A stretch of DNA of 32,000 nt from an uncultured Erysipelotrichaceae bacterium (GCA_942492995.1 OW818653.1:1410001-1442000), one strand, 5' to 3'. Shown: positions 1 through 12,775, counted from the stretch's first letter. Numbers and translations: made by a program. The notes: a model not told the origin generated them from the letters alone.

Positions 1-889
1 TCTTACCTAACTGAAATGCCATACCACATTCAAATGATACATCGTCGTTAGGTTCTAACCCATGATAGTCATTTAAGTTCGCAAGAATTAAATCACAATT
101 ACGCACATGTTGTTGGTAATGATCAAATTGATTGTATGCCATTTCGTACACATCATCACTTTCAACGTGTTCTACCATTGGCGCATCATCTAATGGACTT
201 ATTGCGACTAAACCATACATATCACATATCTTTTTCATTTCTTCTAATTTATTTTTTGCGTCATTATCATAACGTTCGAATGTAGATAGGTAAACTCTTG
301 GTTTATCAATTGGTTTAACCGTAGGTTGCGGGTCCGCATCAAGAATAAAAACATTCCGATTTGCCTTTAACTTTGAATCTTCTTCAATATCTGTTTTAAA
401 CATATTTAGTGCGTCAGTAAAATTACCTTCTATTATTTTAGTCGATCCAACAATACATGGACCAAATGGTAATTCTTTATGCGGCAATACTCTTCCATCG
501 ATATCATAAAGTTCATTCCCTTTATAAATCGCATTCCCATATTTCATTCGTTCAGGACGTTTATCACGTGTAAATCCATAGAGTTTTGCGCCCTTAGCGT
601 AAGCCATACCCATTTCATATACCGTTCCACCATCCGGAACACAACCACGATAGTTCTCAAGATTCGCTATGATGCATGTTGTTTGATTCATTGAATCTCT
701 ACAGTTCTTGAATATTGCGGAACTAAATTGACGTTTATTTCCTTCTTCGTACTCTAAAACATTTTCATTTGGTAACGCGACTTTAAAGCCATTAAATTCC
801 GCTTCTTTACGTAGTGCATGCCACATTCCATAACCATTCTTATAAAAACAGAGTGGTCCTGCAATATACAAACTTTCATCTTTATTCAT
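1..889 (-). CDS. Nucleoside 2-deoxyribosyltransferase-like protein with two tandem domains (5' part of the gene; C-terminus lies beyond the left edge)
   Basis: Absent from the ORF track because it runs off the window. My manual minus-strand translation from the ATG at 889 (GAGGAA at 895-900) is open to position 1: MNKDESLYIAGPLCFYKNGYGMWH...NLENYRGCVPDGGTVYEMGMAYAKG..., then a second copy ...PRVYLSTFERYD...NLNDYHGLEPNDDVSFECGMAFQLGK. Both halves carry the D-x-[GD]-[TVS]-x-[YF]-E-x-G-x-A signature I associate with the deoxyribosyltransferase fold. Confidence 0.6.
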   Translation of the reverse strand, partial: MNKDESLYIAGPLCFYKNGYGMWHALRKEAEFNGFKVALPNENVLEYEEGNKRQFSSAIFKNCRDSMNQTTCIIANLENYRGCVPDGGTVYEMGMAYAKGAKLYGFTRDKRPERMKYGNAIYKGNELYDIDGRVLPHKELPFGPCIVGSTKIIEGNFTDALNMFKTDIEEDSKLKANRNVFILDADPQPTVKPIDKPRVYLSTFERYDNDAKNKLEEMKKICDMYGLVAISPLDDAPMVEHVESDDVYEMAYNQFDHYQQHVRNCDLILANLNDYHGLEPNDDVSFECGMAFQLGK

Positions 890-957
890 GATAATTCCTC
901 TTGTTTATTCTGTAGTTTAATTTTAACTTAGAATCGATTCATTTTCACTAAATTCGT

Positions 958-1752
958 TTATAGATTAAACAATTCCACAAATGCTTTTGCCAATCCATCG
1001 TCATCTACGGAACTTGTAACATAATCAGCACTCTGTTTGACTTCATCACTCGCATTGCCCATCGCTATTCCATGGCCAACAAGTTCTAACATTTCAATGT
1101 CATTCATTCCATCTCCGAATGCGTATGAATCTTCTCGTTTTAATCCAACATGGTTTGTTAAAAATACACATGAACTACCTTTTGTGACACCAGGTAGATG
1201 CATATCCATACGAATCGATTCTTCATCGTATGCATGTATAATCCAATCTTCAGGCATTTCTGCTTTTGCGTTCCACATACTTGCCGCATCATCGAATACA
1301 CCTGTTGTGGCAGTACATTTAATCTGATCCACATCAAATGGCAAAAATATTTTATCAACTAGTTTAACATCTAATCCAAAATGTACCATATGATCAATTG
1401 CTAAGTCTTTTCTATCAGGATTTACCCATTGTCCGATAACACCTGAAAAGATTAATCCTGCATTGTATTTTTCAATAACCGATTTTTGAAGCAATAATTG
1501 ATCTTTTGAAAAGCAATTGTTCAATAATATTTCATTGTGAAATTCTATGTATTGTCCATTACTAAATACAAATCCATCAAACATATCTTTCATTAATCCT
1601 AATGGCAATTTCGAACGAGATGTCGCTAAAATTAATAAATTACCTTTTTCACGAAATTTTCTAAATGCGTCTAAACAATTTTCTGTTGGTAGATTTAATC
1701 CACTTGGGTAATTTAATATCGTTCCATCAATATCTACGAATGCTATTTTCAT
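958..1752 (-). CDS. Cof-type HAD-IIB family hydrolase (sugar/other phosphatase)
   Basis: 264 aa. N-terminal FVDIDGTIL motif (HAD motif I), TSR (motif II) and C-terminal GDGMNDIEML (motif IV). GAGGA RBS upstream of the ATG at 1752. Sits directly upstream of the deoxyribosyltransferase-like gene on the same strand. Confidence 0.85.
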   Translation of the reverse strand: MKIAFVDIDGTILNYPSGLNLPTENCLDAFRKFREKGNLLILATSRSKLPLGLMKDMFDGFVFSNGQYIEFHNEILLNNCFSKDQLLLQKSVIEKYNAGLIFSGVIGQWVNPDRKDLAIDHMVHFGLDVKLVDKIFLPFDVDQIKCTATTGVFDDAASMWNAKAEMPEDWIIHAYDEESIRMDMHLPGVTKGSSCVFLTNHVGLKREDSYAFGDGMNDIEMLELVGHGIAMGNASDEVKQSADYVTSSVDDDGLAKAFVELFNL

Positions 1753-1811
1753 TTTAATCCTCGCCTTTTCATTTTTTTAATTTCACTTCTATATGATAAG
1801 ATTAGAGTATC

Positions 1812-2666
1812 ATGTTATTCAACAAACTTAAAACACTCAATAATCTGACTCATCAGGAACAAGCTGTCGTTCAATACATTGTGGATCATCCAAGTGATTT
1901 ACTTAAAATGAACATCAATGATTTAGCTATTTTAAGCTATTCTAGTACCTCAACTATCGTACGTTTATGCAAGAAACTAGGATTTAAAGGATTTACAGAT
2001 TTTAAGATTACATATGTATCAGAATTCTCACTCTTCCTCGAACAACAGGAACATCTTTTGGATATTCCATTTACTCCAAAATCGAGTTTAGACGATGTCG
2101 TAAGTCGATTACCCATGATATATCAAAAGGCAATTGATCAGACGCGTTCTATGTTTGATTATGATGTATTGTCTCGTTGTATTAAGATGATACAAAATAG
2201 TAAGCATATTGGAATTTACGGAACAGGATTAAACTTCGATCTCGCTAAGATGTACCAATATAAATTCGAAGAAGTTGGCGTTTCATCCATTGCGTATGAT
2301 TCTGCACATTGGCAACACCTCTCACGTTTGAAACTCCATGATATCCCTAGTTTTGCGATACTAATTTCATTAACTGGTACAAATCCAATTATCTTGGATA
2401 TCGCTAAACGTATGAATTCATTAAGTATTCCTACGTTATGTATTTCTGGAAGAGATAATAATAAATTAAGTTCTTTGTGTACCGAAAATATTCGTATAAT
2501 CGATGTCGCAAATACCTTAGAGCTCTATAATCTTACATCTGCGATTGCGGCGCAATACATTCTTGATATCTTTGTCGCAATGAGTGTCGTAAAGAATTAT
2601 GAAGAAATACTATCCATTACTAACGAAACGACAATAAATCTTAATAAACTAATCTCAACTAAATAA
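1812..2666 (+). CDS. MurR/RpiR family transcriptional regulator (HTH_6 + SIS domain)
   Basis: 284 aa. N-terminal LTHQEQAVVQYIVDHP...INDLAILSYSSTSTIVRLCKKLGFKGFTDFK matches the RpiR-type HTH. The C-terminal half has the SIS-like IGIYGTG...ILISLTG pattern. Divergent from the HAD gene. Confidence 0.85.
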   Translation: MLFNKLKTLNNLTHQEQAVVQYIVDHPSDLLKMNINDLAILSYSSTSTIVRLCKKLGFKGFTDFKITYVSEFSLFLEQQEHLLDIPFTPKSSLDDVVSRLPMIYQKAIDQTRSMFDYDVLSRCIKMIQNSKHIGIYGTGLNFDLAKMYQYKFEEVGVSSIAYDSAHWQHLSRLKLHDIPSFAILISLTGTNPIILDIAKRMNSLSIPTLCISGRDNNKLSSLCTENIRIIDVANTLELYNLTSAIAAQYILDIFVAMSVVKNYEEILSITNETTINLNKLISTK

Positions 2667-2794
2667 AACACATTGGTAAATATCTGGACAAATGATTTTC
2701 CGTTTCCAATGTGTCATGACAAGAACCTGCAAGATCACATTTTGGGATGTGATGGTTCTATACTTAGATTTAAACATGTTAAATTAATATGAAC

Positions 2795-2826
2795 AATGTT
2801 CCAAATAGAAATTGGAACATTTTTTC
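2795..2826 (+). terminator. Rho-independent terminator candidate
   Basis: AATGTTCCAA (2795-2804), 7-nt loop, TTGGAACATT (2812-2821), then TTTTT. It lies about 130 nt after the RpiR stop codon. Confidence 0.55.
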
Positions 2827-2906
2827 ATTTATCTAAATCGATTGAGATATAAATGAAATAATTGCGAAAATTACTACCATAGAATTCTTATCGTAAACAC
2901 TATTGT

Positions 2907-2933
2907 AAACAAAAACCATCCAATAGGATGGTT
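2907..2933 (-). terminator. Weak rho-independent terminator at the end of the glutamate mutase/methylaspartase operon
   Basis: Inverted repeat AACCATCC (2914-2921) / GGATGGTT (2926-2933) with a 4-nt loop. On the minus strand it is followed by TTTGTTT. The stem overlaps the stop codon at 2932-2934. Confidence 0.4.
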
Positions 2934-3249
2934 AGAAATCAAATTCTAGATCAAGTAATGGCGCATGTTGTTGAGCACCATAGACATCGGTTTCACGAAT
3001 ATCACCACTGCACATTGGACGAATGATTGTTGCTTTAATCGCATGGGCAGGAATAAATTCAATAATATTTATTACATCTTCAACTTTTATTTGATACAAA
3101 CGTGCAATGAGTTCAGGGTTTATGCATTTGTGTTCACACATTAATCTAAATGTTTCATCATCCTTTAGGATAATATCGAAGGTAATTTCATAAGGTCCTG
3201 AATTCTTAGAACGTATGACTTTCGCCATATCAATTAGTTTACGTTTCAT
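2932..3249 (-). CDS. DUF4387 domain protein (AtuA C-terminal-like small subunit)
   Basis: The ORF-track entry runs 2932-3270. I prefer the ATG at 3249 (MKRKLIDMAKVIRSKNSGPYEITFDIILKD...) because GAGG sits 5 nt upstream, immediately after the TGA of the preceding gene. The VIRSKN(S/A)GP(Y/F)E.T.D motif is what I recognise from DUF4387. Confidence 0.7.
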   Translation of the reverse strand: MKRKLIDMAKVIRSKNSGPYEITFDIILKDDETFRLMCEHKCINPELIARLYQIKVEDVINIIEFIPAHAIKATIIRPMCSGDIRETDVYGAQQHAPLLDLEFDF

Positions 3250-3256
3250 TGGTGCC

Positions 3257-4609
3257 TCACAATTGTACAATCGTACGTTTAAACATACCGACAGGATCTG
3301 TCACTTCAATAAGATGATATAGGCTAAAATTATACACAGCTCCGACTTTGAAATCGGATGGTGAGTAAGGGAATGCTAGATTACCCGCTGTCGCAATACG
3401 TCCTTCATATCCATAATGTAACATCGTACTTCGCGCAAAACTACAGATGGTATTTGCGACTTCCTGAGTACTCGCTACCGCATCGATTACGATGCAGAGT
3501 TCATGTGAATGTATTTCTTTGATTGGTTCAAGTTCACCCATGACACCATTCTTACCATATACCTTAAAGTTTAAATGATAATCTTTTAAATCTTTGAAGT
3601 TATCTTTTACTCTTAATTCAACACCTTGAATTATTGAATCGATTTCTCGAATGAAGATTGGATCTCGTACTCCGGCAATACTAACGGTTCTAAACCCAAC
3701 ACATTTAGCTGCCTCAAGTTTAATCGTATAAGGATTGGATGGAATATATACACTACCTTTAACCTCAACTTGTTCATCGTTTAATTGAGTAAAAGTTGTA
3801 TTGTGTAGATCAATGGTTCCACCAGGACCTGGTAGAATATAAGGATTTGTTTTTTCGTAGAGTGTATGTGCACTAACACTTAATGTCGTACATTTACGGA
3901 TTGGATTAAGTGTTTGCAAGATAAATGAATCCTCTGTAATCGTTCCAAACATACAATCACTTCCACTACCTGGACTTGACGCAATTGCGGCACATTCCAA
4001 TATCTTTCCACAATGGAGTGCTAAACCTGGATCAAATCCTCTTAATATCGGAAGAGCTGCGAAAACGGTTGGGTCATAAGCACGACCCGCAATAATCACA
4101 TCTACATTTTCTTTAAGCGCTTCAATAAATGGTTCTACACCCATTTGACCTACAATATAAGTCGAGTCTTTAATATCATCTTTTGTACAAACTGGTGCTG
4201 GATGTAAAGGCTTTATCTTACCTTCATCAAATGCTTTATACAGTAATTCTTTGTCAATATCTGCTTCAATAATTGCCATTTTAAAATGTAGATTATTTTC
4301 TTTTGCGATTTCTTCCACAATCTTTACGGTCCAATCAAGATGTGGTTTTGCGCCACTACCTCCAGCTGTCCCAACAAGTACAGGAATATTGTGTTCAATA
4401 CCTGCTTGAATCATTATGCCTAAATCACGTTTAACGGCATAGTAATCGGTAAATGAAACGCCAGCTCCAAGATAATATGGTCCAGGATCTGTAGAACCAG
4501 CATCAACTGCGATACAATCTGGTTTAAGTTTCATCCCTGCTTCAAAACTAGACATCGGAAATCCATAACCAAGAATCGCAGTAGTGGATAGTATTTTTAC
4601 ACTTTTCAT
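3257..4609 (-). CDS. DUF1446 (AtuA-like, acyclic terpene utilisation family) protein
   Basis: 450 aa. N-terminal ...ILGYGF...PDCIAVDAGSTDPGPYYLGAG... is typical of DUF1446. The start ATG overlaps the methylaspartate ammonia-lyase stop by 4 nt (4606-4609). Confidence 0.8.
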   Translation of the reverse strand: MKSVKILSTTAILGYGFPMSSFEAGMKLKPDCIAVDAGSTDPGPYYLGAGVSFTDYYAVKRDLGIMIQAGIEHNIPVLVGTAGGSGAKPHLDWTVKIVEEIAKENNLHFKMAIIEADIDKELLYKAFDEGKIKPLHPAPVCTKDDIKDSTYIVGQMGVEPFIEALKENVDVIIAGRAYDPTVFAALPILRGFDPGLALHCGKILECAAIASSPGSGSDCMFGTITEDSFILQTLNPIRKCTTLSVSAHTLYEKTNPYILPGPGGTIDLHNTTFTQLNDEQVEVKGSVYIPSNPYTIKLEAAKCVGFRTVSIAGVRDPIFIREIDSIIQGVELRVKDNFKDLKDYHLNFKVYGKNGVMGELEPIKEIHSHELCIVIDAVASTQEVANTICSFARSTMLHYGYEGRIATAGNLAFPYSPSDFKVGAVYNFSLYHLIEVTDPVGMFKRTIVQL

Positions 4610-5856
4610 ACGTTTGCCTTTCGTGCAGTATCGAGTGCGATAATTCGTTGCATTTCATTGTATACAATCATGAATCCTTCATCGACGCCCATTCCAGGTT
4701 TCGCAAGAATTTGACATGGTTGCGTTGCCATCGCTAAATGTACACATGTTTTAGCACTTAAATCAGTCTCGTTACATGTACCACCTTGGTATGCCCCAAT
4801 TCCTTTTTCCTTACAATAAAGTACAGCTTCAACGGTATTCTGTATACCACCTAAATCAGGTGTTTTAATCTGTACCATATGACCAGCTTTCATATCCGCA
4901 AACTCCATAATATCTTCAAGCGTATTACACCATTCATCCGCAACTATCTCAACATCAATCTTTCTTTGATCGAGTTTTTCAGTGATTATTTTAAGGCCTA
5001 ACATCGTCTTTTCACGATTATCGAAATCAACTGGACCTTCAATTCTTAAATGATATGGTCCGCTTGCGACACGTAATGTTTCAAGATAATCGACCATCGC
5101 ATCATAATCTTCTTTAAAGATAATGCCTAATGTCCCATACACATCGATATGAAATACCGGATTATAGTCTTCTGAATTTTTATGTTCATCAATACGTTGT
5201 CTTAACCATTTAACATACTCAAGTAACTTCTCACCTTGATAACCAAGTTTACTTTCAACATGATTAATCAAACCATGCGGTAAAACAGCACTTCCTTTAA
5301 GTATCATTTTATCTACATTGTCATAGCGATTATCGCCACTTTGACTGAAAATAGGGATTAACTCATGACTTACTTCAGTATGATATTCTTCCGCAATGAT
5401 ATTTGCCATTTGGGTATGTTTCGATTTCGCAATCGCATCGAGTAATGCTTGAGTAATTCCATAACGTAGTGCCGTATGAATTCGTTTACCATCAAGTTCT
5501 AAATGATCAAATTCATGTGCCATTGATTTAAACGTAGTCATTTCACGATTTAATAAAAGTGGTTTAATTCTCTCTTGAACGATTTGTTTGAACTCTTCTG
5601 CTATAAACAATGGATCTCTTCCACCACAACCACTGTATTGAACAGCACAACAATCGCCCATTCCAACTTGTCCATCTTCAAGGATTAACATAATTGTTAA
5701 TGATTCGCCTGCTTGACGGATACGGTTAAAACCATCAGTTACAGGTTCTCCTATATAGAAGTTACCATCTGATTTAGCACCTTTTTTAATTGCTTTTTGG
5801 TCATCAAAAAAGAATCCTGTTCTTCCACAACTACTTACGACATCAATTATTTTCAT
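4606..5856 (-). CDS. mal: 3-methylaspartate ammonia-lyase (methylaspartase, enolase superfamily)
   Basis: 416 aa. [27 protein letters not shown]..., and [12 protein letters not shown] containing the catalytic-Lys motif known from the Clostridium tetanomorphum enzyme. 4-nt overlap with the end of glmE. Confidence 0.93.
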
Positions 5857-7310
5857 ATGTTCCCCTTATTAGGACGACCAACGAGTCTTCCTTTACTAAC
5901 TGCATAGATATCATCAATAACCATTTGGAAACTGACTTGTCTACGTTCAACTTCTGCACGTTCTTGTAGTTTCTTGCGATGGAGATCTTTCAATGATTCA
6001 TCAAATGGTAAATTACCAAATTCATAGATTCTTACTGCACCATGATTGTCTCTAGCCGGTAACATCTTTCCTGCATTACATACAGCTGGGGCGAATGGTA
6101 CATCAATTAGTCCTGCTTCAAATGCACGAACAGCAGATAAACCAAAGTTATTTTCACCTAATTTAAGGACTGCTTCTAAAATGCTCTTTGTTTCACGCGT
6201 GATAATGTTCATTTCATCGACGATTTCAGTTGTCTCAAACGCAACTTGATCCTTTAACATCGATGTTAATTGTTTAGTTGTTTTTAATCCATTTGCGTTC
6301 GCTTCGGCAGTTGGGACGCCAAATGCTTCATGTGGAGATTTTACGATTACTTTGGTTGCGCCAGATAAAACGGCTGTCGCAGCTCCCCAACTTATAACCG
6401 CATACGCTTTAGCTTCATCTTGTGGGAAACCACCCATCCATTGATGAAATACGGTAGATACTTTTACATCTTCATACCCAAAACGTTTTAGATATTCTTT
6501 TGTGAGTAAATCAAGTGTACGAATTGCGGCGATATCTTGGGTTTGATTGCCACATTGTCCATACCCTACGGTAATACATTTACACCCTTGTTCAGCGGCT
6601 AATAGACTTTCAAGAATCGCAACACTGTGTGAGATACATGCAGGTACAAGTGTTCCCGTCAATGGACCAAACGGTTCGCGATTAATGGTTACTCCGCGTT
6701 CTTCATAATATCCAATTAAACGATCGACATATTGCCAATCTGTTATTGTTTTCTCTAAAGAATAATTCTTTCCATAAGGAATGTTATAGGAGATTCCACC
6801 CCCTTCATACGATGTGAATCCACCTGCTAAAGTGATTTCTGCTAATAGACGAGCATCTGGAGTTCCATGTCTTACTTGTAGCGGTACATTCAAAGATGAC
6901 ACGATATTGCGACAAACATGAACCCCATGGTTAACTGCAGGAAACCCATTAAGCAATGATTTACCTGTTCTAACACTTTCATCAATACCGGTTTGTGCTT
7001 CAGTATATCGATTGTGTCGTGTATAACTATCGATGGTTGTTGGTAAAAGATCTGCTCCACCTTCATCTTGTAAGAACTTTAATAATTTTATGTGTTCATT
7101 TGGTAATGCGACACCAGCTCTTGGTTGAATCAATGTTTCTTTGTTTAGGATGGCTTGCGCTAAACGATGACTAAATCGTTTCTCATCACTAATTGATTTT
7201 TGATAAGTTATCGCTTCTTCAATATCAACATCTTTTCCTGTACTCCATTGTTTAAGTACTTCTTCTCTTTGTTTAAGAAATTCATCTAACGGAATTTTTT
7301 TATTATACAT
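5853..7310 (-). CDS. glmE: Glutamate mutase (methylaspartate mutase) epsilon/E subunit
   Basis: 485 aa, a TIM-barrel mutase E-chain-like sequence (…[10 protein letters not shown]…[15 protein letters not shown]…). It occupies the canonical position after glmL and before mal. 8-nt overlap with the end of glmL. Confidence 0.92.
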
Positions 7311-8661
7311 GATGAATACGCTCCATATTTCTCTTTAAGATTCGTAATACTGTGTCGGGATATTTGTTCGCTAATAAACCTAAACAGCTAATAATATAAC
7401 TTTTATCTAAGTAGAATTCACATTGATTAGGCAATAATATCTCTTTATGATTAGGTTGTGATAATGCATTATGTAGGATTGAATACGCATCTTCCGCATA
7501 GATTATCGGTCCACCAATCCCGATAAGTATTTTCACATCGCGACAATCCTTCCCCGTTTGATAATAACTGACACCCATTGGTGTATAACTGGTTTCAAGT
7601 CGTCCTACATGTCTTTCACATGCGATTTCTGTACACCAACTCGCAAGTAGTTTGTCGTATTTTGGATTTGGTACACAATGAACATTATGTTTAATTTCGT
7701 TTAGATATGTTTCTAATTCTGGATCATTGATTTTATCTTTCATTAATTCATATACATTCATTGAACTAAAACGTAACCCTAAATCACCTTCTACACTTCG
7801 TTTCTCTAATGGTTCTTGTAGTCCTTTATATCCAAACTCTTCATTTATAACCAATCGTTGATTCATACTATACACATCTGTTGTGGCACCACCGATATCA
7901 ATGGCCATTAAATCGCCTAGTCCACTCTCAGTTAATGTACCTTTGGATAAGAGCTTTAGAGCTTCCATAACACTTGATGGGGTAGGTAGTACAATATCAT
8001 CCACAAGTTCACTTAAACGTGATAACCCACGTGCTTTTATGATTGATTTTAGAAATAACTCACGTATCTTCTCTTTACACTCGTCTACTTCTAATACACC
8101 ATAGGTAGGCATTACATTTGCGCAAAGTATGCATTCAAATCCATTTTGTTCAAGTAATGTCTTGATCTCGTCTTGACATGATTTATTGCCTGCATAGATG
8201 ATTGGAAAGCGTGATTTTAGTTTAATTAACTGATTCGCATTAGTTCGAACACTGGTTTGGTTACCACCATCTGTTCCACCACTAAGTAATAAAATATCAC
8301 AATTCGAAGATTCTATGTGTTCCAGTTCAGATTGATTTAATTCAAACGAATACGATTGAATAACTTTAGCCCCAGCACTATAACACGCTAGACGAGCTGC
8401 TTTAAGGGTTAAATCCGGAACTAATCCAATCGCAATCATACGCAATCCACCTTTAGCAGAACTACACACTAATGTTTCATGAATTGTAATATGATCTAAA
8501 ACATCTTTCATTTTAGATTTTATCTTCTCTATCCCAATCGAAATATCTGTACTTGACGTTGTAAAATCACTCGCATGTGCAAGTATTTTCTCTTGATCTG
8601 TATCAACGATACAACCCTTTGTATAGGTTGATCCAACATCAAATAAACAGTAATTAGGCAT
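7303..8661 (-). CDS. glmL: Glutamate mutase accessory/reactivating protein GlmL (MutL), ASKHA-fold
   Basis: 452 aa. N-terminal [12 protein letters not shown] phosphate-1-like motif and a later DIGGATTDV motif. Located between glmS and glmE as in clostridial operons. Confidence 0.88.
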
Positions 8662-9079
8662 AGAACCCTTGCGCTAATAAATCATTCTTCAAATCTTCAA
8701 TGCCTTGGTTAATATCTGCACCAGGTGGATAAACACGATTAAAACCCATGCCCTTAAATAAATGTTCAACCTCAGTAAAATCAGATTTACCTACGACAAG
8801 GTTTCCACCAATATAGAGCAATATTTTATCCAATCCAGCTTCTTTACACATATCCCCCATACCGCGACAATCCAATTCACCATGTCCATAAAGACTTGAG
8901 ACAATGATAGCCTTTGCGTTAGTCTCAACCGCCGCATCAATAAACTCTTTTTGCGAAACCATAACTCCAAGGTTAATCACATTAAACCCAGCTTGATCAA
9001 ACGCATACGCAATAATACGATTCCCTACCGCATGAACATCTGCCCCAATTACACCAATTACGATATTAATTTTTTCCAC
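8654..9079 (-). CDS. glmS: Glutamate mutase sigma/S subunit (B12-binding)
   Basis: 141 aa. [17 protein letters not shown] carries the DxHxxG cobalamin-binding motif. The size is typical of GlmS/MutS. Confidence 0.93.
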
Positions 9080-9093
9080 TTCAAATGCGCTCC

Positions 9094-10014
9094 TTAATCC
9101 GCAAAATGATTTATTTTATGGATATCCTGAATGGTTTCTCCACTCACAATTCCAACTAATTCAAACGTACTCTTCTGAGGATCATAGACATATTCTTTGA
9201 GTAGTCTAAAGTGTTTAATTTGCCCTGTATGATTTACATGCGTTCGAGGTCCTGTACAATATTGATCAATGATTTCACCTATTTTGATGTGGGTTGAATC
9301 ATGATAACTTATTGTTAGATCCTGCTTAATATATGCCTTAACTTTCTTTTCTAATACCGATATTGAAACCTTAGGTTTCTTATTGAAGGATAATATGAAT
9401 CCATGTTTAACATCCCCATGACCATCACACACAATCCCGTAATCACTTTCTAATACATGAACCAATAAATCTTCTGCACTATGTGCCATTCTTCGATAAT
9501 TGATTGATTTATAAACCGTTGTTTTAATATCTTCTGGAACAGGTCCAAACAAATTCGGACGCGATACAATAACCTCTTCTCCTATTCCAATTAGCAAATC
9601 CGCATTTACTTTCAAGTATGGAAATAGATCATCAAAATGTTCAATAATGACTCTTTTCTTATTTAATACTGCAAGATTTACAGCTTCTACCAATAAATAC
9701 ATCTGCGTAAACGCTGTTTCAAAGCGTATATCAATATGGTAGGTATGTGATTTAAAATTCAATTGTCCATAATCACGCATAAGAGGTGAAGGACGACTGT
9801 TAATTCCATCATCATCATTGGTTAACTCTAATCCTGGAAACATACCTTTTATGAAAAGTGATTTTCCACTACCCGCATCCCCGATTAATCCAATTATCTT
9901 ATCGTTGGGTAATAGGTATTTCTGACTCACTTGATTCCCAAGATTTTGCATACGAACACTTCCTCTTGGGGCAAAGTATGTCGCATATCTAAATTGTTCG
10001 ATGCTTAAAGTCAT
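9094..10014 (-). CDS. Uncharacterised P-loop protein with a C-terminal AlaRS/ThrRS second-additional-domain-like segment
   Basis: 306 aa, first gene of the operon, with an AGGAG RBS at 10021-10025. Walker A GDAGSGKS at aa 45-52, and a possible Walker [10 protein letters not shown]. The C-terminal [20 protein letters not shown] resembles the C-x-x-x-H...TG-x-I-x-x-F motif of the tRNA_SAD domain, preceded by HGDVKH. Confidence 0.6.
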
Positions 10015-10030
10015 GTTTATCTCCTAATAA

Positions 10031-10062
10031 ACAAAAATGATGCGAGAAAAATCGCATCATTT
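10031..10062 (-). terminator. Strong intrinsic terminator/attenuator hairpin immediately upstream of the glutamate mutase operon RBS
   Basis: The minus strand reads AAATGATGCGA-TTTTTC-TCGCATCATTT followed by TTGTTTATT (11-bp stem at 10035-10045 / 10052-10062). It is about 125 nt downstream of the malic enzyme stop and about 9 nt upstream of the AGGAG of the 9094-10014 gene. Confidence 0.6.
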
Positions 10063-10185: not shown

Positions 10186-11362
10186 TTATGATTTTCGAAC
10201 ACATCCTGATGCGATTGCGACATCTTTTACAGCTTGACTAACGACATCCTTAACACGTTTATCAAATACACTTGGAATAATGTAATCTGGACTAAGTTCT
10301 TCTATTTGGATAAGACTTGATAGACCATATGCGGCAGCTTTTTTCATCTCTTCTGTGATTTGCGTTGCCTTTGCGTCCAGTGCGCCTCTAAACAAACCAG
10401 GGAATGCGAGCACATTATTGACTTGATTTGGATAATCACTTCGTCCTGTCGCAATGATATACGCTCCAGCTTCTTTCGCATCTTCATAACTTATTTCAGG
10501 TTCTGGATTCGCTAATGCGAATACAATGGAAAGTTTATTCATACTTTGAATCATCGCTTTACTAACAAGTTTAGGAGCAGATACACCAATAAACACATCC
10601 GCATTTAACATCGCTTCTTGAAGTGTAACATTAAGTTGATTTGGATTTGTAAATTCACTGAGTTCTTGAACTAAGAAATCGGTGTGTTCTTCTTTTCGAA
10701 TAATTCCTTCTTTTCTAAATCCTAAGATATTTACAACACCTAAATCTCTTAACATAAACATGATTGAACTACCGGCTGCGCCAGCACCACTTACCACAAC
10801 TTTTAATTCTTTGAGTTCTTTCTTAATTAATTTTAATGCGTTAATTAGTCCAGCCGCTACGACAATCGCTGTTCCGTGTTGATCGTCATGGAAAACTGGA
10901 ATACTTAAAGTACGTTTAAGTTCTCTTTCAATTTGTACACATCTAGGCGCAGAAATATCTTCTAGGTTGATCCCTCCAAAACTTGGAGCTAATGCCTTAC
11001 AGATGCGAATGATTTCATCTGGGTCTTTTGTGTCTAATGCGATTGGGACTGCGTCAATATCTGCGAACGATTTGAATAATGCACATTTACCTTCCATAAC
11101 AGGTAAGCTTGCATGAGGTCCTATATCACCTAAACCTAGCACAGCAGTTCCGTCAGTAATAACCGCAACGGTATTCCCTTTCCAGGTATAGTCATAGACG
11201 GATTCTGGATTACGATGGATTTCGCGACATGGTTCCGCAACACCTGGTGTATAGGCTAAGCTTAGTTCTTCTTTATTGGTAATTGGCGCATTTAATTCAA
11301 TACGTAATTTACCCTCGCCATGCTTTATGTGCGATGAGTGATTTTTGATAAATATCTGACAT
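10186..11362 (-). pseudogene. NAD(P)-dependent malic enzyme (short MaeA/YtsJ type) interrupted by a 1-nt frameshift near codon 14
   Basis: The ORF track reports only 10186-11142, starting at an internal GTG. The same frame is open up to 11376 and encodes ...HGEGKLRIELNAPITNKEELSLAYTPGVAEPCREIHRNPESVYDYTWKGNTVAVITDGTAVLGLGDIG, the conserved malic enzyme N-terminus, but has no ATG/GTG/TTG. An ATG at 11362, 1 nt after the upstream stop, encodes MSDIYQKSLIAHKAWRG* in the adjacent frame, with its stop at 11309-11311. Removing one nt around 11323-11326 gives MSDIYQKSLIAHKHGEGKL..., a normal malic enzyme start. Confidence 0.8.
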
Positions 11363-11363
11363 G

Positions 11364-11921
11364 TTAATCCAACTCTCTATATTTCGCTTGTTCAATTTCG
11401 TATAAGTTATTTCCATAGGCATCAATCACGACAATTGCGGGAAAATCTTTAACCCAAAAACGGTGAATTGCCTCAGGACCTAAGTCTTCATAACATAGGA
11501 TTTCACTTCCCATAATACTTTTCGAGATCATTGCGCCAAGTCCACCAATTGCCGCAAAGTAAACACATTGGTGCTTTTTCATCGCATTGATAACTTCAAC
11601 ACTTCGATTTCCTTTGCCTATCATTCCTTTTAAACCTTTTTCAATTAAGATTGGGGCATATTTATCCATACGATAACTTGATGTAGGTCCAGCTGAACCT
11701 ACCGCAACACCTGGTTTACTTGGAGCTGGTCCAACATAATAGATGACTTCTCCTTCTAGTTTGATAGGTAATTGTTGATGGTTTTTAATCGCATCAAATA
11801 ATCTTTGATGAGCCGCATCTCTTCCTGTAATCATCGTTCCTGATAATAAGACACTCTCACCAGCTTTTAGTGATAGAATCGTCTCATTATCTAAAGGTAA
11901 TTGTATTTTTCTTTCTTCCAT
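11364..11921 (-). CDS. Fe-S type (class I-like) fumarate hydratase/hydro-lyase, beta subunit; candidate mesaconase subunit
   Basis: 185 aa. ...LSGTMITGRDAAHQRL...YYVGPAPSKPG...GPTSSYRMD... is typical of the tartrate/fumarate-subfamily beta chain. Confidence 0.88.
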   Translation of the reverse strand: MEERKIQLPLDNETILSLKAGESVLLSGTMITGRDAAHQRLFDAIKNHQQLPIKLEGEVIYYVGPAPSKPGVAVGSAGPTSSYRMDKYAPILIEKGLKGMIGKGNRSVEVINAMKKHQCVYFAAIGGLGAMISKSIMGSEILCYEDLGPEAIHRFWVKDFPAIVVIDAYGNNLYEIEQAKYRELD

Positions 11922-11929
11922 TTCTTCTC

Positions 11930-12775
11930 CTAGAGTTCAATAGACGCATGTCGAGATGCATGACAGCTTATATTGATAGCGACTGGTATTGAGGCAATAT
12001 GTGTAGGATAGACTTCGATATTAATCGCAAATGCGGTAGTTAAACCACCAAGTCCCGCAGGTCCTATCCCTGTTTTATTTATTTTTGTGAGTAATTCTTC
12101 TTCTAGTGCTCGATAACGCGGGTCAGGATGTGGATGATCGGTTCCTCTTAACACTGCTTTTTTCGCAATTAAACTTGCGTATTCGAATGTTCCACCAATT
12201 CCAACTCCGACAATCATGGGTGGGCATGCATTCGGTCCAGCTTTTTCTACCGCTTCTACAATAAATTGTTTTACACCTTCAATCCCAACAGATGGCGCAA
12301 ACATTTTTAGTGTACTCATATTCTCACTTCCAAATCCTTTAGGCATGACTTCAATATGTATTTTATCCCCAGGCACAATCATTGTATGGATTACTGCAGG
12401 TGTATTATCTTTTGTATTAACTCGATCAAACAATGGATCTCTAACCACCGATTTGCGAAGATATCCTTCTTGGTATGCTTGTCTTACACCTTCATGAATC
12501 GCATCATTAAGGTATGTACCTTCAATATGTACATCTTGTCCAATATCGATAAAAACGACGGACATTCCAGTATCTTGGCAAATTGCAATACCTTCTTTTT
12601 TAGCGAGTGTATTATTTTCATAAATCTTTTCTAGGATTGATTTCCCTAACTGTGATTTCTCTTTATTCATCGCATCTTCTATTGTCTTGAAAACTGAATC
12701 GCCAATATCAAAATTAGCTTGTATAAATAAGTCTTTTACAGCTTGAGTGATTTCTGTTGATTGAATGGTGCGCAT
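11930..12775 (-). CDS. Fe-S type (class I-like) fumarate hydratase/hydro-lyase, alpha subunit; candidate mesaconase subunit
   Basis: 281 aa. ...IAICQDTGMSVVFIDIG... and ...CPPMIVGVGIGGTFE... are typical of the alpha chain. First gene of the fumarase/malic-enzyme operon. Confidence 0.88.
   Translation of the reverse strand: MRTIQSTEITQAVKDLFIQANFDIGDSVFKTIEDAMNKEKSQLGKSILEKIYENNTLAKKEGIAICQDTGMSVVFIDIGQDVHIEGTYLNDAIHEGVRQAYQEGYLRKSVVRDPLFDRVNTKDNTPAVIHTMIVPGDKIHIEVMPKGFGSENMSTLKMFAPSVGIEGVKQFIVEAVEKAGPNACPPMIVGVGIGGTFEYASLIAKKAVLRGTDHPHPDPRYRALEEELLTKINKTGIGPAGLGGLTTAFAINIEVYPTHIASIPVAINISCHASRHASIEL

Follow-up and report, generated by a model that had tools for sequence, protein, structure and literature searches.

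A methylaspartate-pathway locus of an uncultured Erysipelotrichales bacterium with a predicted CmlAB-type citramalate lyase and a candidate P-loop accessory protein

The classical clostridial cluster of the methylaspartate pathway, as in Clostridium tetanomorphum and C. tetani, carries glmS-glmL-glmE-mal in this order, a two-subunit mesaconase (mesAB), and citDEF together with citC/X/G, and leads from glutamate to pyruvate, acetate, and NH3. Herein, the last step is performed by the acyl-carrier-protein–dependent CitDEF. The clusters of Raoultella and E. coli O157:H7 lack CitDEF and, in its stead, carry two genes right after mal, one for a protein of ~450 aa (AtuA/DUF1446) and one for a protein of 105 aa (DUF4387). 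The DUF1446 gene downstream of mal was already noted by Kronen & Berg (2015), and no CitDEF-type citramalate lyase activity was detectable in E. coli O157:H7 (PMC4682846). The two-subunit enzyme CmlAB is from the Berg laboratory and, according to a preprint, from Raoultella planticola; it has been used in vivo as a citramalate lyase and works in E. coli without the P-loop protein described below (10.64898/2026.01.16.699985). Its structures 9ERQ and 9EVF were released on 2025-10-08 with the chain names "Citramalate lyase, subunit A (cmlA)" and "subunit B (cmlB)", and 9EVF is titled "Citramalate lyase - ADP - pyruvate complex". The label of CmlAB as a citramalate lyase stems from these depositor names, the entry title, and the one preprint using the enzyme. 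AtuA of the Pseudomonas acyclic terpene utilisation cluster, the namesake of PF07287, belongs to the same Pfam family as CmlA, and we know of no function assigned to it so far. Pfam and NCBIfam attach no functional name to DUF1446 or DUF4387.

The locus described here lies in a window of 32,000 nt from an uncultured Erysipelotrichaceae bacterium (GCA_942492995.1 OW818653.1:1410001-1442000), and positions are counted from the first letter of this window. Seven minus-strand genes run from 10014 to 2932, preceded upstream by genes for a two-subunit mesaconase and a malic enzyme. The features, in the order of transcription, are as follows.

11930–12775, minus strand: mesA, alpha subunit of a class I Fe-S hydro-lyase (mesaconase/fumarase candidate); Pfam Fumerase, 1.1e-115; NCBIfam NF004885, 413.5 bits (cutoff 276).
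11364–11921, minus strand: mesB, beta subunit of the hydro-lyase, partner of mesA; Pfam Fumerase_C, 3.3e-57; NCBIfam NF005310, 269 bits (cutoff 238).
10186–11362, minus strand: malic enzyme gene, split into two reading frames by a 1-nt insertion after codon 17 (GGG-T-AAA, ~11311).
10035–10062, minus strand: terminator-like hairpin, 11-bp stem and T-run, ending ~20 nt before the start codon of the P-loop gene; fold z = -3.1.
9094–10014, minus strand: P-loop protein of 306 aa, a fusion of two domains, one a TsaE-like P-loop ATPase and the other an AlaX-like metal-site domain (similar to the editing domain of AlaRS).
8654–9079, minus strand: glmS, B12-binding sigma subunit of glutamate (methylaspartate) mutase; NF002612, 213.8 bits (cutoff 110); TIGR01501.
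7303–8661, minus strand: glmL/mutL, ASKHA-type accessory protein of glutamate mutase, presumed reactivase; NF040745, 529.6 bits (cutoff 475); Pfam MutL, 1.4e-141.
5853–7310, minus strand: glmE, catalytic epsilon subunit of glutamate mutase; TIGR01503, 753.5 bits (cutoff 390).
4606–5856, minus strand: mal, 3-methylaspartate ammonia-lyase (MAL); TIGR01502, 579 bits (cutoff 286); MAAL_N and MAAL_C.
3257–4609, minus strand: cmlA, large subunit of a CmlAB-type citramalate lyase (AtuA/DUF1446, PF07287); match to PDB 9erq_A/9evf_A, E = 2.8e-168.
2932–3249, minus strand: cmlB, small citramalate lyase subunit (DUF4387, PF14330); match to PDB 9erq_B, E = 2.3e-28; Pfam DUF4387, 1.3e-38.
2914–2933, minus strand: intrinsic-terminator-like hairpin at the operon end, AACCATCC-TATT-GGATGGTT followed by TTTGTTT, overlapping the cmlB stop codon.

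An earlier note on this DNA had described seven tightly packed genes, and its coordinates, overlaps, and gaps are all exactly reproduced. Overlaps of 8 nt join glmS to glmL (8654–8661) and glmL to glmE (7303–7310), and overlaps of 4 nt join glmE to mal (5853–5856) and mal to cmlA (4606–4609). The gaps measure 14 nt between the P-loop gene and glmS (9080–9093) and 7 nt between cmlA and cmlB (3250–3256). The start of cmlB is the ATG at 3249, which is preceded by a GAGG ribosome-binding site; a mechanical ORF list places it at a TTG at 3270 instead.

The core glmS-glmL-glmE-mal, likewise named in that note, is confirmed by the Pfam and NCBIfam domain calls, with equivalog-level matches for both mutase subunits and for GlmL. 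GlmL contains two DxG(S/G)T motifs and shows a weak Hydant_A_N match, and MAL matches MAAL_N and MAAL_C with E-values of 3.7e-116 and 6.3e-70. The mesaconase candidate reported next door holds as well: by Pfam and NCBIfam, the adjoining alpha and beta genes encode a two-subunit class I Fe-S hydro-lyase, MesAB, for which mesaconate is the candidate substrate. A mesA-type gene is colocated with glm/mal in 26–27 of 80 MAL-centred loci.

The two genes at the 3′ end are the orthologues of cmlA and cmlB, as judged from sequence and structure matches, and hence belong to a citramalate lyase type unrelated to CitDEF. CmlA aligns over its full length with 9erq_A (phmmer, residues 3–440 against 4–440), its AF2 model superposes on 9evf_A with a TM score of 0.92 at 57% identity, and it is 60% identical to ECs_0760 of E. 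coli O157:H7. To the AtuA profile, it matches strongly only in part (68 bits), and the context of AtuA is terpene catabolism rather than glm/mal. CmlB aligns with 9erq_B over residues 1–105 and is 45% identical to ECs_0759. The ~105-aa DUF4387 subunit follows cmlA directly, and the pair sits directly 3′ of mal where CitDEF would be; E. coli O157:H7 has the same arrangement mal-cmlA-cmlB. Compared with the enterobacterial Cml clusters, the locus differs in its host, a low-GC Erysipelotrichales bacterium, in having the two-subunit MesAB in place of the single-chain FumD, in lacking cobA and gltP, and in carrying the P-loop gene.

The distribution of the two lyase types was compared in 160 related loci, namely 80 MAL-centred genome loci and 80 P-loop-centred metagenome loci. 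CmlAB is present in 17 and CitE/F in 44 of the MAL-centred loci, which constitute a biased sample since they are the closest relatives only (62–75% identity); the P-loop-centred loci contain Cml in 34 and Cit in 20 cases. Co-occurrence of CmlAB and CitDEF is found in none of the 160. In the window, the ORFs scanned against Pfam include no CitD/E/F or CitC/X/G, nor do the scanned ORFs include a CoA-transferase or citramalyl-CoA lyase gene, whereas the CitDEF genes of Cit-type loci, L023 for instance, are easily found. CmlAB would thus be a non-orthologous displacement of the acyl-carrier-dependent CitDEF of the classical clostridial clusters. With CmlAB in place of CitDEF, the CitC/X/G activation genes would not be needed.

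All steps of glutamate fermentation by the methylaspartate pathway are very probably encoded at the locus, with CmlAB as the final lyase and the P-loop protein as an accessory factor. The activities of the individual proteins are assigned from their families. Adenosylcobalamin-dependent GlmS/GlmE, serviced by GlmL, would convert L-glutamate to (2S,3S)-3-methylaspartate, which MAL would deaminate to mesaconate. MesAB would hydrate mesaconate to (S)-citramalate, and heteromeric CmlAB is predicted to split citramalate directly into pyruvate and acetate, as is known for the Raoultella enzyme. Because CmlAB is present, the chemistry would be that of the textbook, with a nonhomologous enzyme for the last step.

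The P-loop protein has no match above cutoff to a curated family in Pfam or NCBIfam. Its AF2 model has a pLDDT of 87 and shows two domains. The N-terminal domain resembles TsaE structures in Foldseek (1htw/6n9a, E ~3e-5, TM 0.54–0.59 normalised to the target). TsaE/YjeE is the ATPase of the bacterial t6A complex TsaBDE, with which the protein shares the N-terminal fold, Walker A, and HxDxR. More than 3000 homologues are found. Walker A, a Walker-B-like EHF, and the TsaE-like HxDxR are invariant in the family; we compare the last with the HxDxYR motif of TsaE. It is, nevertheless, no TsaE orthologue: its scores stay below the cutoffs (Pfam TsaE, 25.9 versus 26.6; TIGR00150, 24.6 versus 60.1), and only the fold is similar. 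In addition, it carries an extra C-terminal domain of 150 aa, and its context is glutamate fermentation instead of tsaB/tsaD. This C-terminal domain resembles AlaX/AlaRS structures (1v7o, 3kew, 2zzg; E ~1e-4) and contains the invariant sets H178xxxD182 and C253x5H259. The zinc motifs of AlaX are HxxxH and CxxxH, of which the invariant sets are presumably variants, the sites being placed by motif comparison. Assignment as an AlaX/tRNA_SAD editing domain was rejected, as the tRNA_SAD score is 20.9 (cutoff 24) and the spacing is HxxxD and Cx5H. Unlike AlaX, the domain is fused to a P-loop ATPase, and a link to tRNA is putative.

Among the gene families of MAL neighbourhoods, that of the P-loop gene ranks fifth in conservation, and the gene occurs in 27 of the 36 MAL loci with complete flanks (11/11 Cml-type, 16/22 Cit-type). 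Pathway genes are found in 27 of the 32 P-loop-centred metagenome loci whose two flanks each measure 3 kb or more, as well as beside all four looked-up homologues of 53–72% identity, i.e. below the near-identical relatives. The linkage persists in at least six gene orders, found among Erysipelotrichales, Oscillospiraceae, Lachnospiraceae, Peptostreptococcaceae, Clostridiaceae, Negativicutes, and a spirochaete MAG. Genes that stay linked despite rearrangement bear the hallmark of functional coupling. By its genomic context, the P-loop protein is thus predicted to be a strongly conserved, pathway-specific accessory protein. Since the clusters of E. coli O157:H7 and other enterobacteria lack its gene, it appears dispensable for the core chemistry.

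As to the role of this protein, we tentatively prefer that of an ATPase which may work together with GlmL and the mutase in cofactor loading or repair. The idea draws on analogy: TsaE acts on the ASKHA pair TsaB–TsaD, so the P-loop protein may likewise act on an ASKHA-fold partner, and other B12 mutases have P-loop chaperones. Against it stands that the P-loop gene adjoins lyase genes (cmlB in 40, citD/citCX in 27 loci) more often than glmS (11 loci) and that, in five loci, it lies in a context unrelated to the pathway. More broadly, the TsaE-like/AlaX-like fusion could possibly be a new accessory factor dedicated to the methylaspartate pathway of anaerobic Bacillota, either as a GlmL partner that loads or exchanges adenosylcobalamin or as a proofreading hydrolase for 3-methylaspartate-derived aminoacyl esters. 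If the former were true, the G3E GTPases and the DdrAB/EutA reactivases would be joined by a third class of chaperones for B12 enzymes.

Proofreading or damage control taken by itself is rather unlikely. Herein, the AlaX-like domain would act as a hydrolase on an aminoacyl ester, e.g. 3-methylaspartyl-tRNA or an aminoacyl-adenylate formed as nonproteinogenic 3-methylaspartate accumulates, and translation would be protected. The AlaX/AlaRS-editing fold and the invariant residues, which we read as AlaX metal-site variants, are consistent with such a role, as is the distribution of the gene, which tracks glm-mal with either lyase, is dispensable in enterobacteria, and is sometimes alone in a genome. 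Editing domains, however, need no P-loop ATPase, the motif spacings are altered, tRNA_SAD stays below the Pfam threshold, and the tRNA role is putative.

About equally improbable is that the P-loop protein serves the lyase/mesaconase end of the pathway, or that it senses pathway flux or regulates it post-translationally, rather than acting on the B12 mutase. Its commonest immediate neighbours point in this direction (cmlB 40, mesA 20, divergent citD 14, citCX 13, versus glmS 11), and CmlAB binds ADP (9EVF), so nucleotides would matter at the lyase step. On the other hand, the gene is found with two unrelated lyase types, the L085 cluster (Ploop-glmS-L-E-mal) has it without an adjacent lyase, Cml is functional in E. 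coli without it, and Pfam and Foldseek reveal no DNA-binding or signalling domain in the protein.

The earlier note had favoured a pathway variant without citramalate lyase, in which the P-loop protein, DUF1446, and DUF4387, all three without a role in the textbook pathway, would perform novel chemistry after mesaconate or citramalate. This reading is now largely refuted and highly improbable. The lack of CitDEF genes among the scanned window ORFs, on which it was built, stands, Pfam/NCBIfam offer no functional name for the two DUFs, and as late as 2015, it was not clear what becomes of citramalate in E. coli O157:H7 (PMC4682846). The conclusion drawn from this, however, fails, as CmlAB fills the step: DUF1446/DUF4387 are 57–60% and ~45% identical to solved CmlAB, which is used as a lyase in vivo, and CmlAB and CitDEF are strictly alternative across the 160 loci. 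Only the P-loop protein stays without an assignment. The neighbourhood check that the note had proposed shows all three genes kept beside glm/mal in many genomes. That the P-loop gene has nothing to do with the pathway and lies so close to glmS by coincidence is very unlikely, as the gene, although absent from enterobacterial clusters and among unrelated neighbours in 5 of 32 well-flanked loci, was detected in 128 of the examined loci, mostly with pathway genes where the flanks are long enough, in many lineages and gene orders.

Two observations concern the region upstream of the operon. The corrected malic enzyme product of 391 aa aligns end to end with its intact orthologue in L005 (72% identity), and the gene is intact (391 aa) in the close relative L170. 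In L005, L006, and L085, too, the P-loop gene is preceded by a hairpin structurally analogous to that at 10035–10062.

The seven-gene operon is preceded by the genes of a two-subunit mesaconase candidate (MesAB) and of a malic enzyme, and its elements read as follows in the direction of transcription.

11930-12775 and 11364-11921, minus strand, two-subunit class I Fe-S hydro-lyase genes (mesAB), upstream of the operon
10186-11362, minus strand, malic enzyme gene, between mesB and the P-loop gene
10062-10035, minus strand, terminator-like hairpin
9094-10014, minus strand, gene of the P-loop protein
8654-9079, minus strand, glmS, above the curated equivalog cutoff
7303-8661, minus strand, glmL, above the curated equivalog cutoff
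5853-7310, minus strand, glmE, above the curated equivalog cutoff
4606-5856, minus strand, mal, above the curated equivalog cutoff
3257-4609, minus strand, cmlA (DUF1446/AtuA)
2932-3249, minus strand, cmlB (DUF4387)
2933-2914, minus strand, terminator-like hairpin at the cmlB stop codon

All seven open reading frames lie exactly where the earlier note had placed them, and the tight packing it described stands: the junctions comprise overlaps of 8, 8, 4, and 4 nt and gaps of 14 nt after the P-loop gene and 7 nt before cmlB. The four core proteins GlmS, GlmL, GlmE, and MAL clear their cutoffs by wide margins. The start of cmlB is likely the ATG at 3249, which has GAGG in front of it and matches Met1 of the E. 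coli orthologue, and not the TTG at 3270 of the mechanical ORF list. The window ORFs scanned include no CitD, CitE, or CitF, no CoA-transferase, and no citramalyl-CoA lyase.

In a PDB sequence search, the DUF1446 and DUF4387 proteins show one strong match each. The former aligns over residues 3-440 with 9erq_A/9evf_A (456 aa; E = 2.8e-168), titled [quoted passage not shown], and the latter over its full length with 9erq_B (105 aa; E = 2.3e-28), titled [quoted passage not shown]. The AlphaFold model of CmlA (pLDDT 84.6) superimposes on 9evf_A with a TM score of 0.92 at 57% identity, and a fold comparison against the PDB returned nothing else near it. Judged by sequence, the pair is a citramalate lyase. 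The Raoultella planticola enzyme has been expressed as cmlAB, and growth of E. coli on mesaconate is Cml-dependent (preprint 10.64898/2026.01.16.699985). The entry 9evf, released on 2025-10-08, is titled "Citramalate lyase - ADP - pyruvate complex"; it contains ADP and pyruvate, yet the cleavage of citramalate to pyruvate and acetate as described requires no nucleotide. The earlier note had counted three genes as foreign to the textbook pathway and had seen no citramalate lyase gene in the window, a reading that gives way to the 9erq and 9evf matches. The predicted route would run from glutamate via 3-methylaspartate, mesaconate, and citramalate to pyruvate and acetate, i.e., textbook chemistry with a different last enzyme, and this different lyase would account for two of the three "extra" genes.

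A DUF1446 gene located 3′ of mal was already noted in Enterobacteriaceae and Dictyoglomus by Kronen and Berg (2015; PMC4682846), who found the citrate, isocitrate, and methylisocitrate lyases of E. coli O157:H7 to be without citramalate lyase activity and concluded that "the fate of (S)-citramalate ... is still unclear". In E. coli O157:H7 Sakai (NC_002695.2, locus L004), the order is glmS-glmL-glmE-mal-ECs_0760-ECs_0759-gltP-fumD-cobA. Herein, ECs_0760 and ECs_0759 (L004 4934-6618) are the orthologues of CmlA (60% identity) and CmlB (45% identity). Hence, their RefSeq names, "3-methylaspartate ammonia-lyase" and "acyl-CoA synthetase", are misannotations; several homologues in the protein database carry the same wrong name, and such names propagate into other databases. 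The labels to correct are "AtuA family" and "3-methylaspartate ammonia-lyase" for CmlA and "DUF4387" and "acyl-CoA synthetase" for CmlB, because of which an entire pathway, glutamate to pyruvate and acetate, is absent from genome-scale models.

The distribution of the two lyases was determined by tblastn on all loci, using the window proteins alongside CitD/E/F/G/CX queries from a classical Cit-type locus (L023, Pfam-identified). The scan with a MAL alignment, one genome per species, constitutes a biased sample, since, out of at least 595 loci, the 12-sequence alignment gave just the nearest 80 (62-75% identity). Their labels are nearly all those of Bacillota/clostridial-type MAGs, in addition to one spirochaete and one "Patescibacteria group" MAG, and the locus nearest to the window in the genome collection is 75% identical.

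Occurrence of the two lyases in glm-mal and P-loop loci
Closest 80 of at least 595 MAL loci: CmlA/B 17; CitE/F 44; both 0; neither 19, mostly short contigs
36 MAL loci with at least 9 kb on each side: CmlA/B 11; CitE/F 22; both 0; neither 3
80 P-loop-centred metagenome loci: CmlA/B 34; CitE/F 20; both 0; neither 26

This mutual exclusion is the pattern expected for non-orthologous displacement between enzymes and argues that the window encodes textbook chemistry. The question left by Kronen and Berg (2015), namely how glm-mal bacteria without CitDEF dispose of citramalate, would be answered for the window locus by CmlAB, and the CmlAB route is widespread in gut and rumen Bacillota, beyond enterobacteria. 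The window locus is a new Erysipelotrichales member of an already described CmlAB-type methylaspartate-pathway cluster: the earlier note had singled out a genuine feature and described it well, but the question at its heart had already been answered elsewhere. Two further features of these neighborhoods were observed. In 21 of the 80 nearest MAL loci (out of at least 595), a gene just 5′ of glmS encodes a GntR-family regulator of ~325 aa whose C-terminal domain is long (e.g., L010 5499-6497 and L012 5629-6600); the window has no such gene, and its sole nearby regulator is a convergent RpiR/SIS gene (1812-2666). Six Cit-type loci (upstream parts, ~100-4000, of L013, L030, L037, L050, L067, and L072) are preceded by ORFs that by eye resemble histidine-utilization genes (urocanase, imidazolonepropionase, glutamate formiminotransferase, and cyclodeaminase); if this reading is true, histidine would be channelled via glutamate into the methylaspartate pathway.

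The third extra gene, encoding the P-loop protein, is not tied to one lyase. An unbiased clustering that took in every ORF of the 80 nearest MAL loci (out of at least 595) ranks its family fifth in conservation (40 loci), behind only GlmL, GlmE, MAL, and GlmS and ahead of CitF (35), CitE (29), MesB/MesA (27/26), the GntR-type regulator (21), and CmlA (16). By tblastn, the gene is present in 44 of these 80 loci and in 27 of the 36 that are fully flanked, comprising 11/11 Cml-type and 16/22 Cit-type loci. Together with Cml in 11 of the 36, this bears out the expectation that the extra genes are conserved beside glm/mal. Conversely, pathway genes occur in 27 of 32 P-loop-centred metagenome loci with at least 3 kb on each side and beside all four homologues looked up (53-72% identity; Petroclostridium, Vallitalea, "Firmicutes GWF2_51_9", and a JGI contig). 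Terrisporobacter mayombei DSM 6539 (L043) has the order P-loop-glmS-glmL-glmE-mal-cmlAB. The gene upstream is cmlB in 40 loci, mal in 22, citD (divergent) in 14, and citCX in 13, and the gene downstream is mesA in 20 and glmS in 11. A linkage kept despite such rearrangement argues for a functional tie to the whole pathway, whichever lyase is used. The gene is not part of the E. coli O157:H7 cluster and Cml functions in E. coli without it; the P-loop protein is therefore accessory and non-catalytic for the core steps. ECs_0767 (314 aa), which occupies the same place upstream of glmS, was considered as an analogue and rejected, as it shows no similarity, Walker A motif, or Pfam match; ECs_0766 (140 aa; both within L004 11712-13160) is likewise empty in Pfam and unlike the P-loop protein. 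No conserved adenosyltransferase (CobA/PduO) complementing presence or absence of the P-loop gene was found among the conserved neighborhood families of the Bacillota clusters. Five well-flanked metagenome loci (L087, L093, L094, L099, and L100) carry a P-loop-family gene (51-55% identical) free of pathway genes within 10 kb, its neighbors being cyclophilin, MatE transporters, a TetR regulator, RNase PH, and others.

The P-loop protein has more than 3000 homologues in a large protein database, named [quoted passage not shown], "TsaE", or, wrongly, "lantibiotic ABC transporter". It stays under every curated threshold (TsaE, 25.9 versus 26.6 bits; tRNA_SAD, 20.9 versus 24; TIGR00150, 24.6 versus 60.1). 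In an alignment of 56 members, the invariant motifs of the N-terminal half are Walker A (G45..G48xG50K51S52), HxDxR (H93-D95-R97), a Walker-B-like E125-H126-F127, and GIGEE at 143-147 with R152. Those of the C-terminal half are H178xxE181D182, H199/D201/H204, H242, and C253TGPRxH259. We take HxDxR to resemble the HxDxYR of TsaE, and H178xxxD182 and C253x5H259 presumably resemble the AlaX metal motifs HxxxH and CxxxH. The AlphaFold model is confident (pLDDT 87, pTM 0.79). Foldseek matches its N-terminal half to TsaE/YjeE (1htw, 6n9a_E, and 6nak_D; E ~3e-5) and its C-terminal half to the AlaX/AlaRS editing domain (1v7o, 3kew, and 2zzg; E ~1e-4), with no full-length match; a PDB profile search with the family gave only Walker-A noise. 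Motifs, model, and matches point to a fusion, predicted to be an active P-loop NTPase joined to an AlaX-like metal-site domain. No characterized representative of this architecture was found by structure, PDB profile, and literature searches. The maintenance machinery of the B12 radical enzyme glutamate mutase is poorly understood. The remaining novelty is this conserved 306-aa ATPase outside curated families. Its link to glm-mal is strong and seems not to have been reported, which recommends it as a good, cheap, and well-defined target for experiments.

In GlmL, the phosphate-binding motif DxG(S/G)T occurs twice and hydantoinase-N matches weakly, both of which fit the ASKHA fold expected for a reactivase-type ATPase. 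The ATPase TsaE docks on the ASKHA pair TsaB-TsaD, which activates it. AdoCbl mutases of other kinds rely on P-loop NTPase chaperones (MeaB/MMAA; PMC10481361, PMC10356863). By these analogies, the favored, though tentative, role of the P-loop protein is to work with GlmL and the mutase as an ATPase in cofactor loading or repair. Two less likely alternatives are an AlaX-like hydrolase clearing aminoacyl esters derived from 3-methylaspartate and a factor that acts on the lyase or mesaconase steps, toward which (on the lyase side) the adjacency counts tilt slightly.

The hairpin at 10035-10062 (minus strand) consists of an 11-bp stem and a T-run and ends ~20 nt before the P-loop start codon, which leaves no space for a promoter behind it. 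By attenuating transcription in the leader or by terminating part of it, the hairpin may set the ratio of mesAB to glm expression. Non-homologous, structurally equivalent hairpins occupy the same place in three Erysipelotrichales loci (L005 ~5850-5880, L006 ~3130-3160, and L085 upstream of 10001); overall, only 9 of 129 loci have a hairpin before the P-loop gene. Rfam searches of the window and of the P-loop gene's leader detected no riboswitch, and the hairpin has no Rfam match. The malic enzyme gene (10186-11362) contains a 1-nt insertion (GGG-T-AAA) near 11311, after codon 17; its frame-corrected product (391 aa) aligns end to end with intact orthologues in two other loci (L005 and L170), and the frameshift reflects a sequencing error in a G-run or else marks a gene that has recently become a pseudogene. 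At the 3′ end of the operon, just 265 nt (2667-2931) separate cmlB from the RpiR regulator gene in the window, whereas a near-identical assembly whose CmlA is the same as that of the window (L167; GCA_964481745.1, CAYZTV010000011.1) has an extra 392-aa Fic-like gene there (4810-5988); the difference is a strain-level insertion or deletion.
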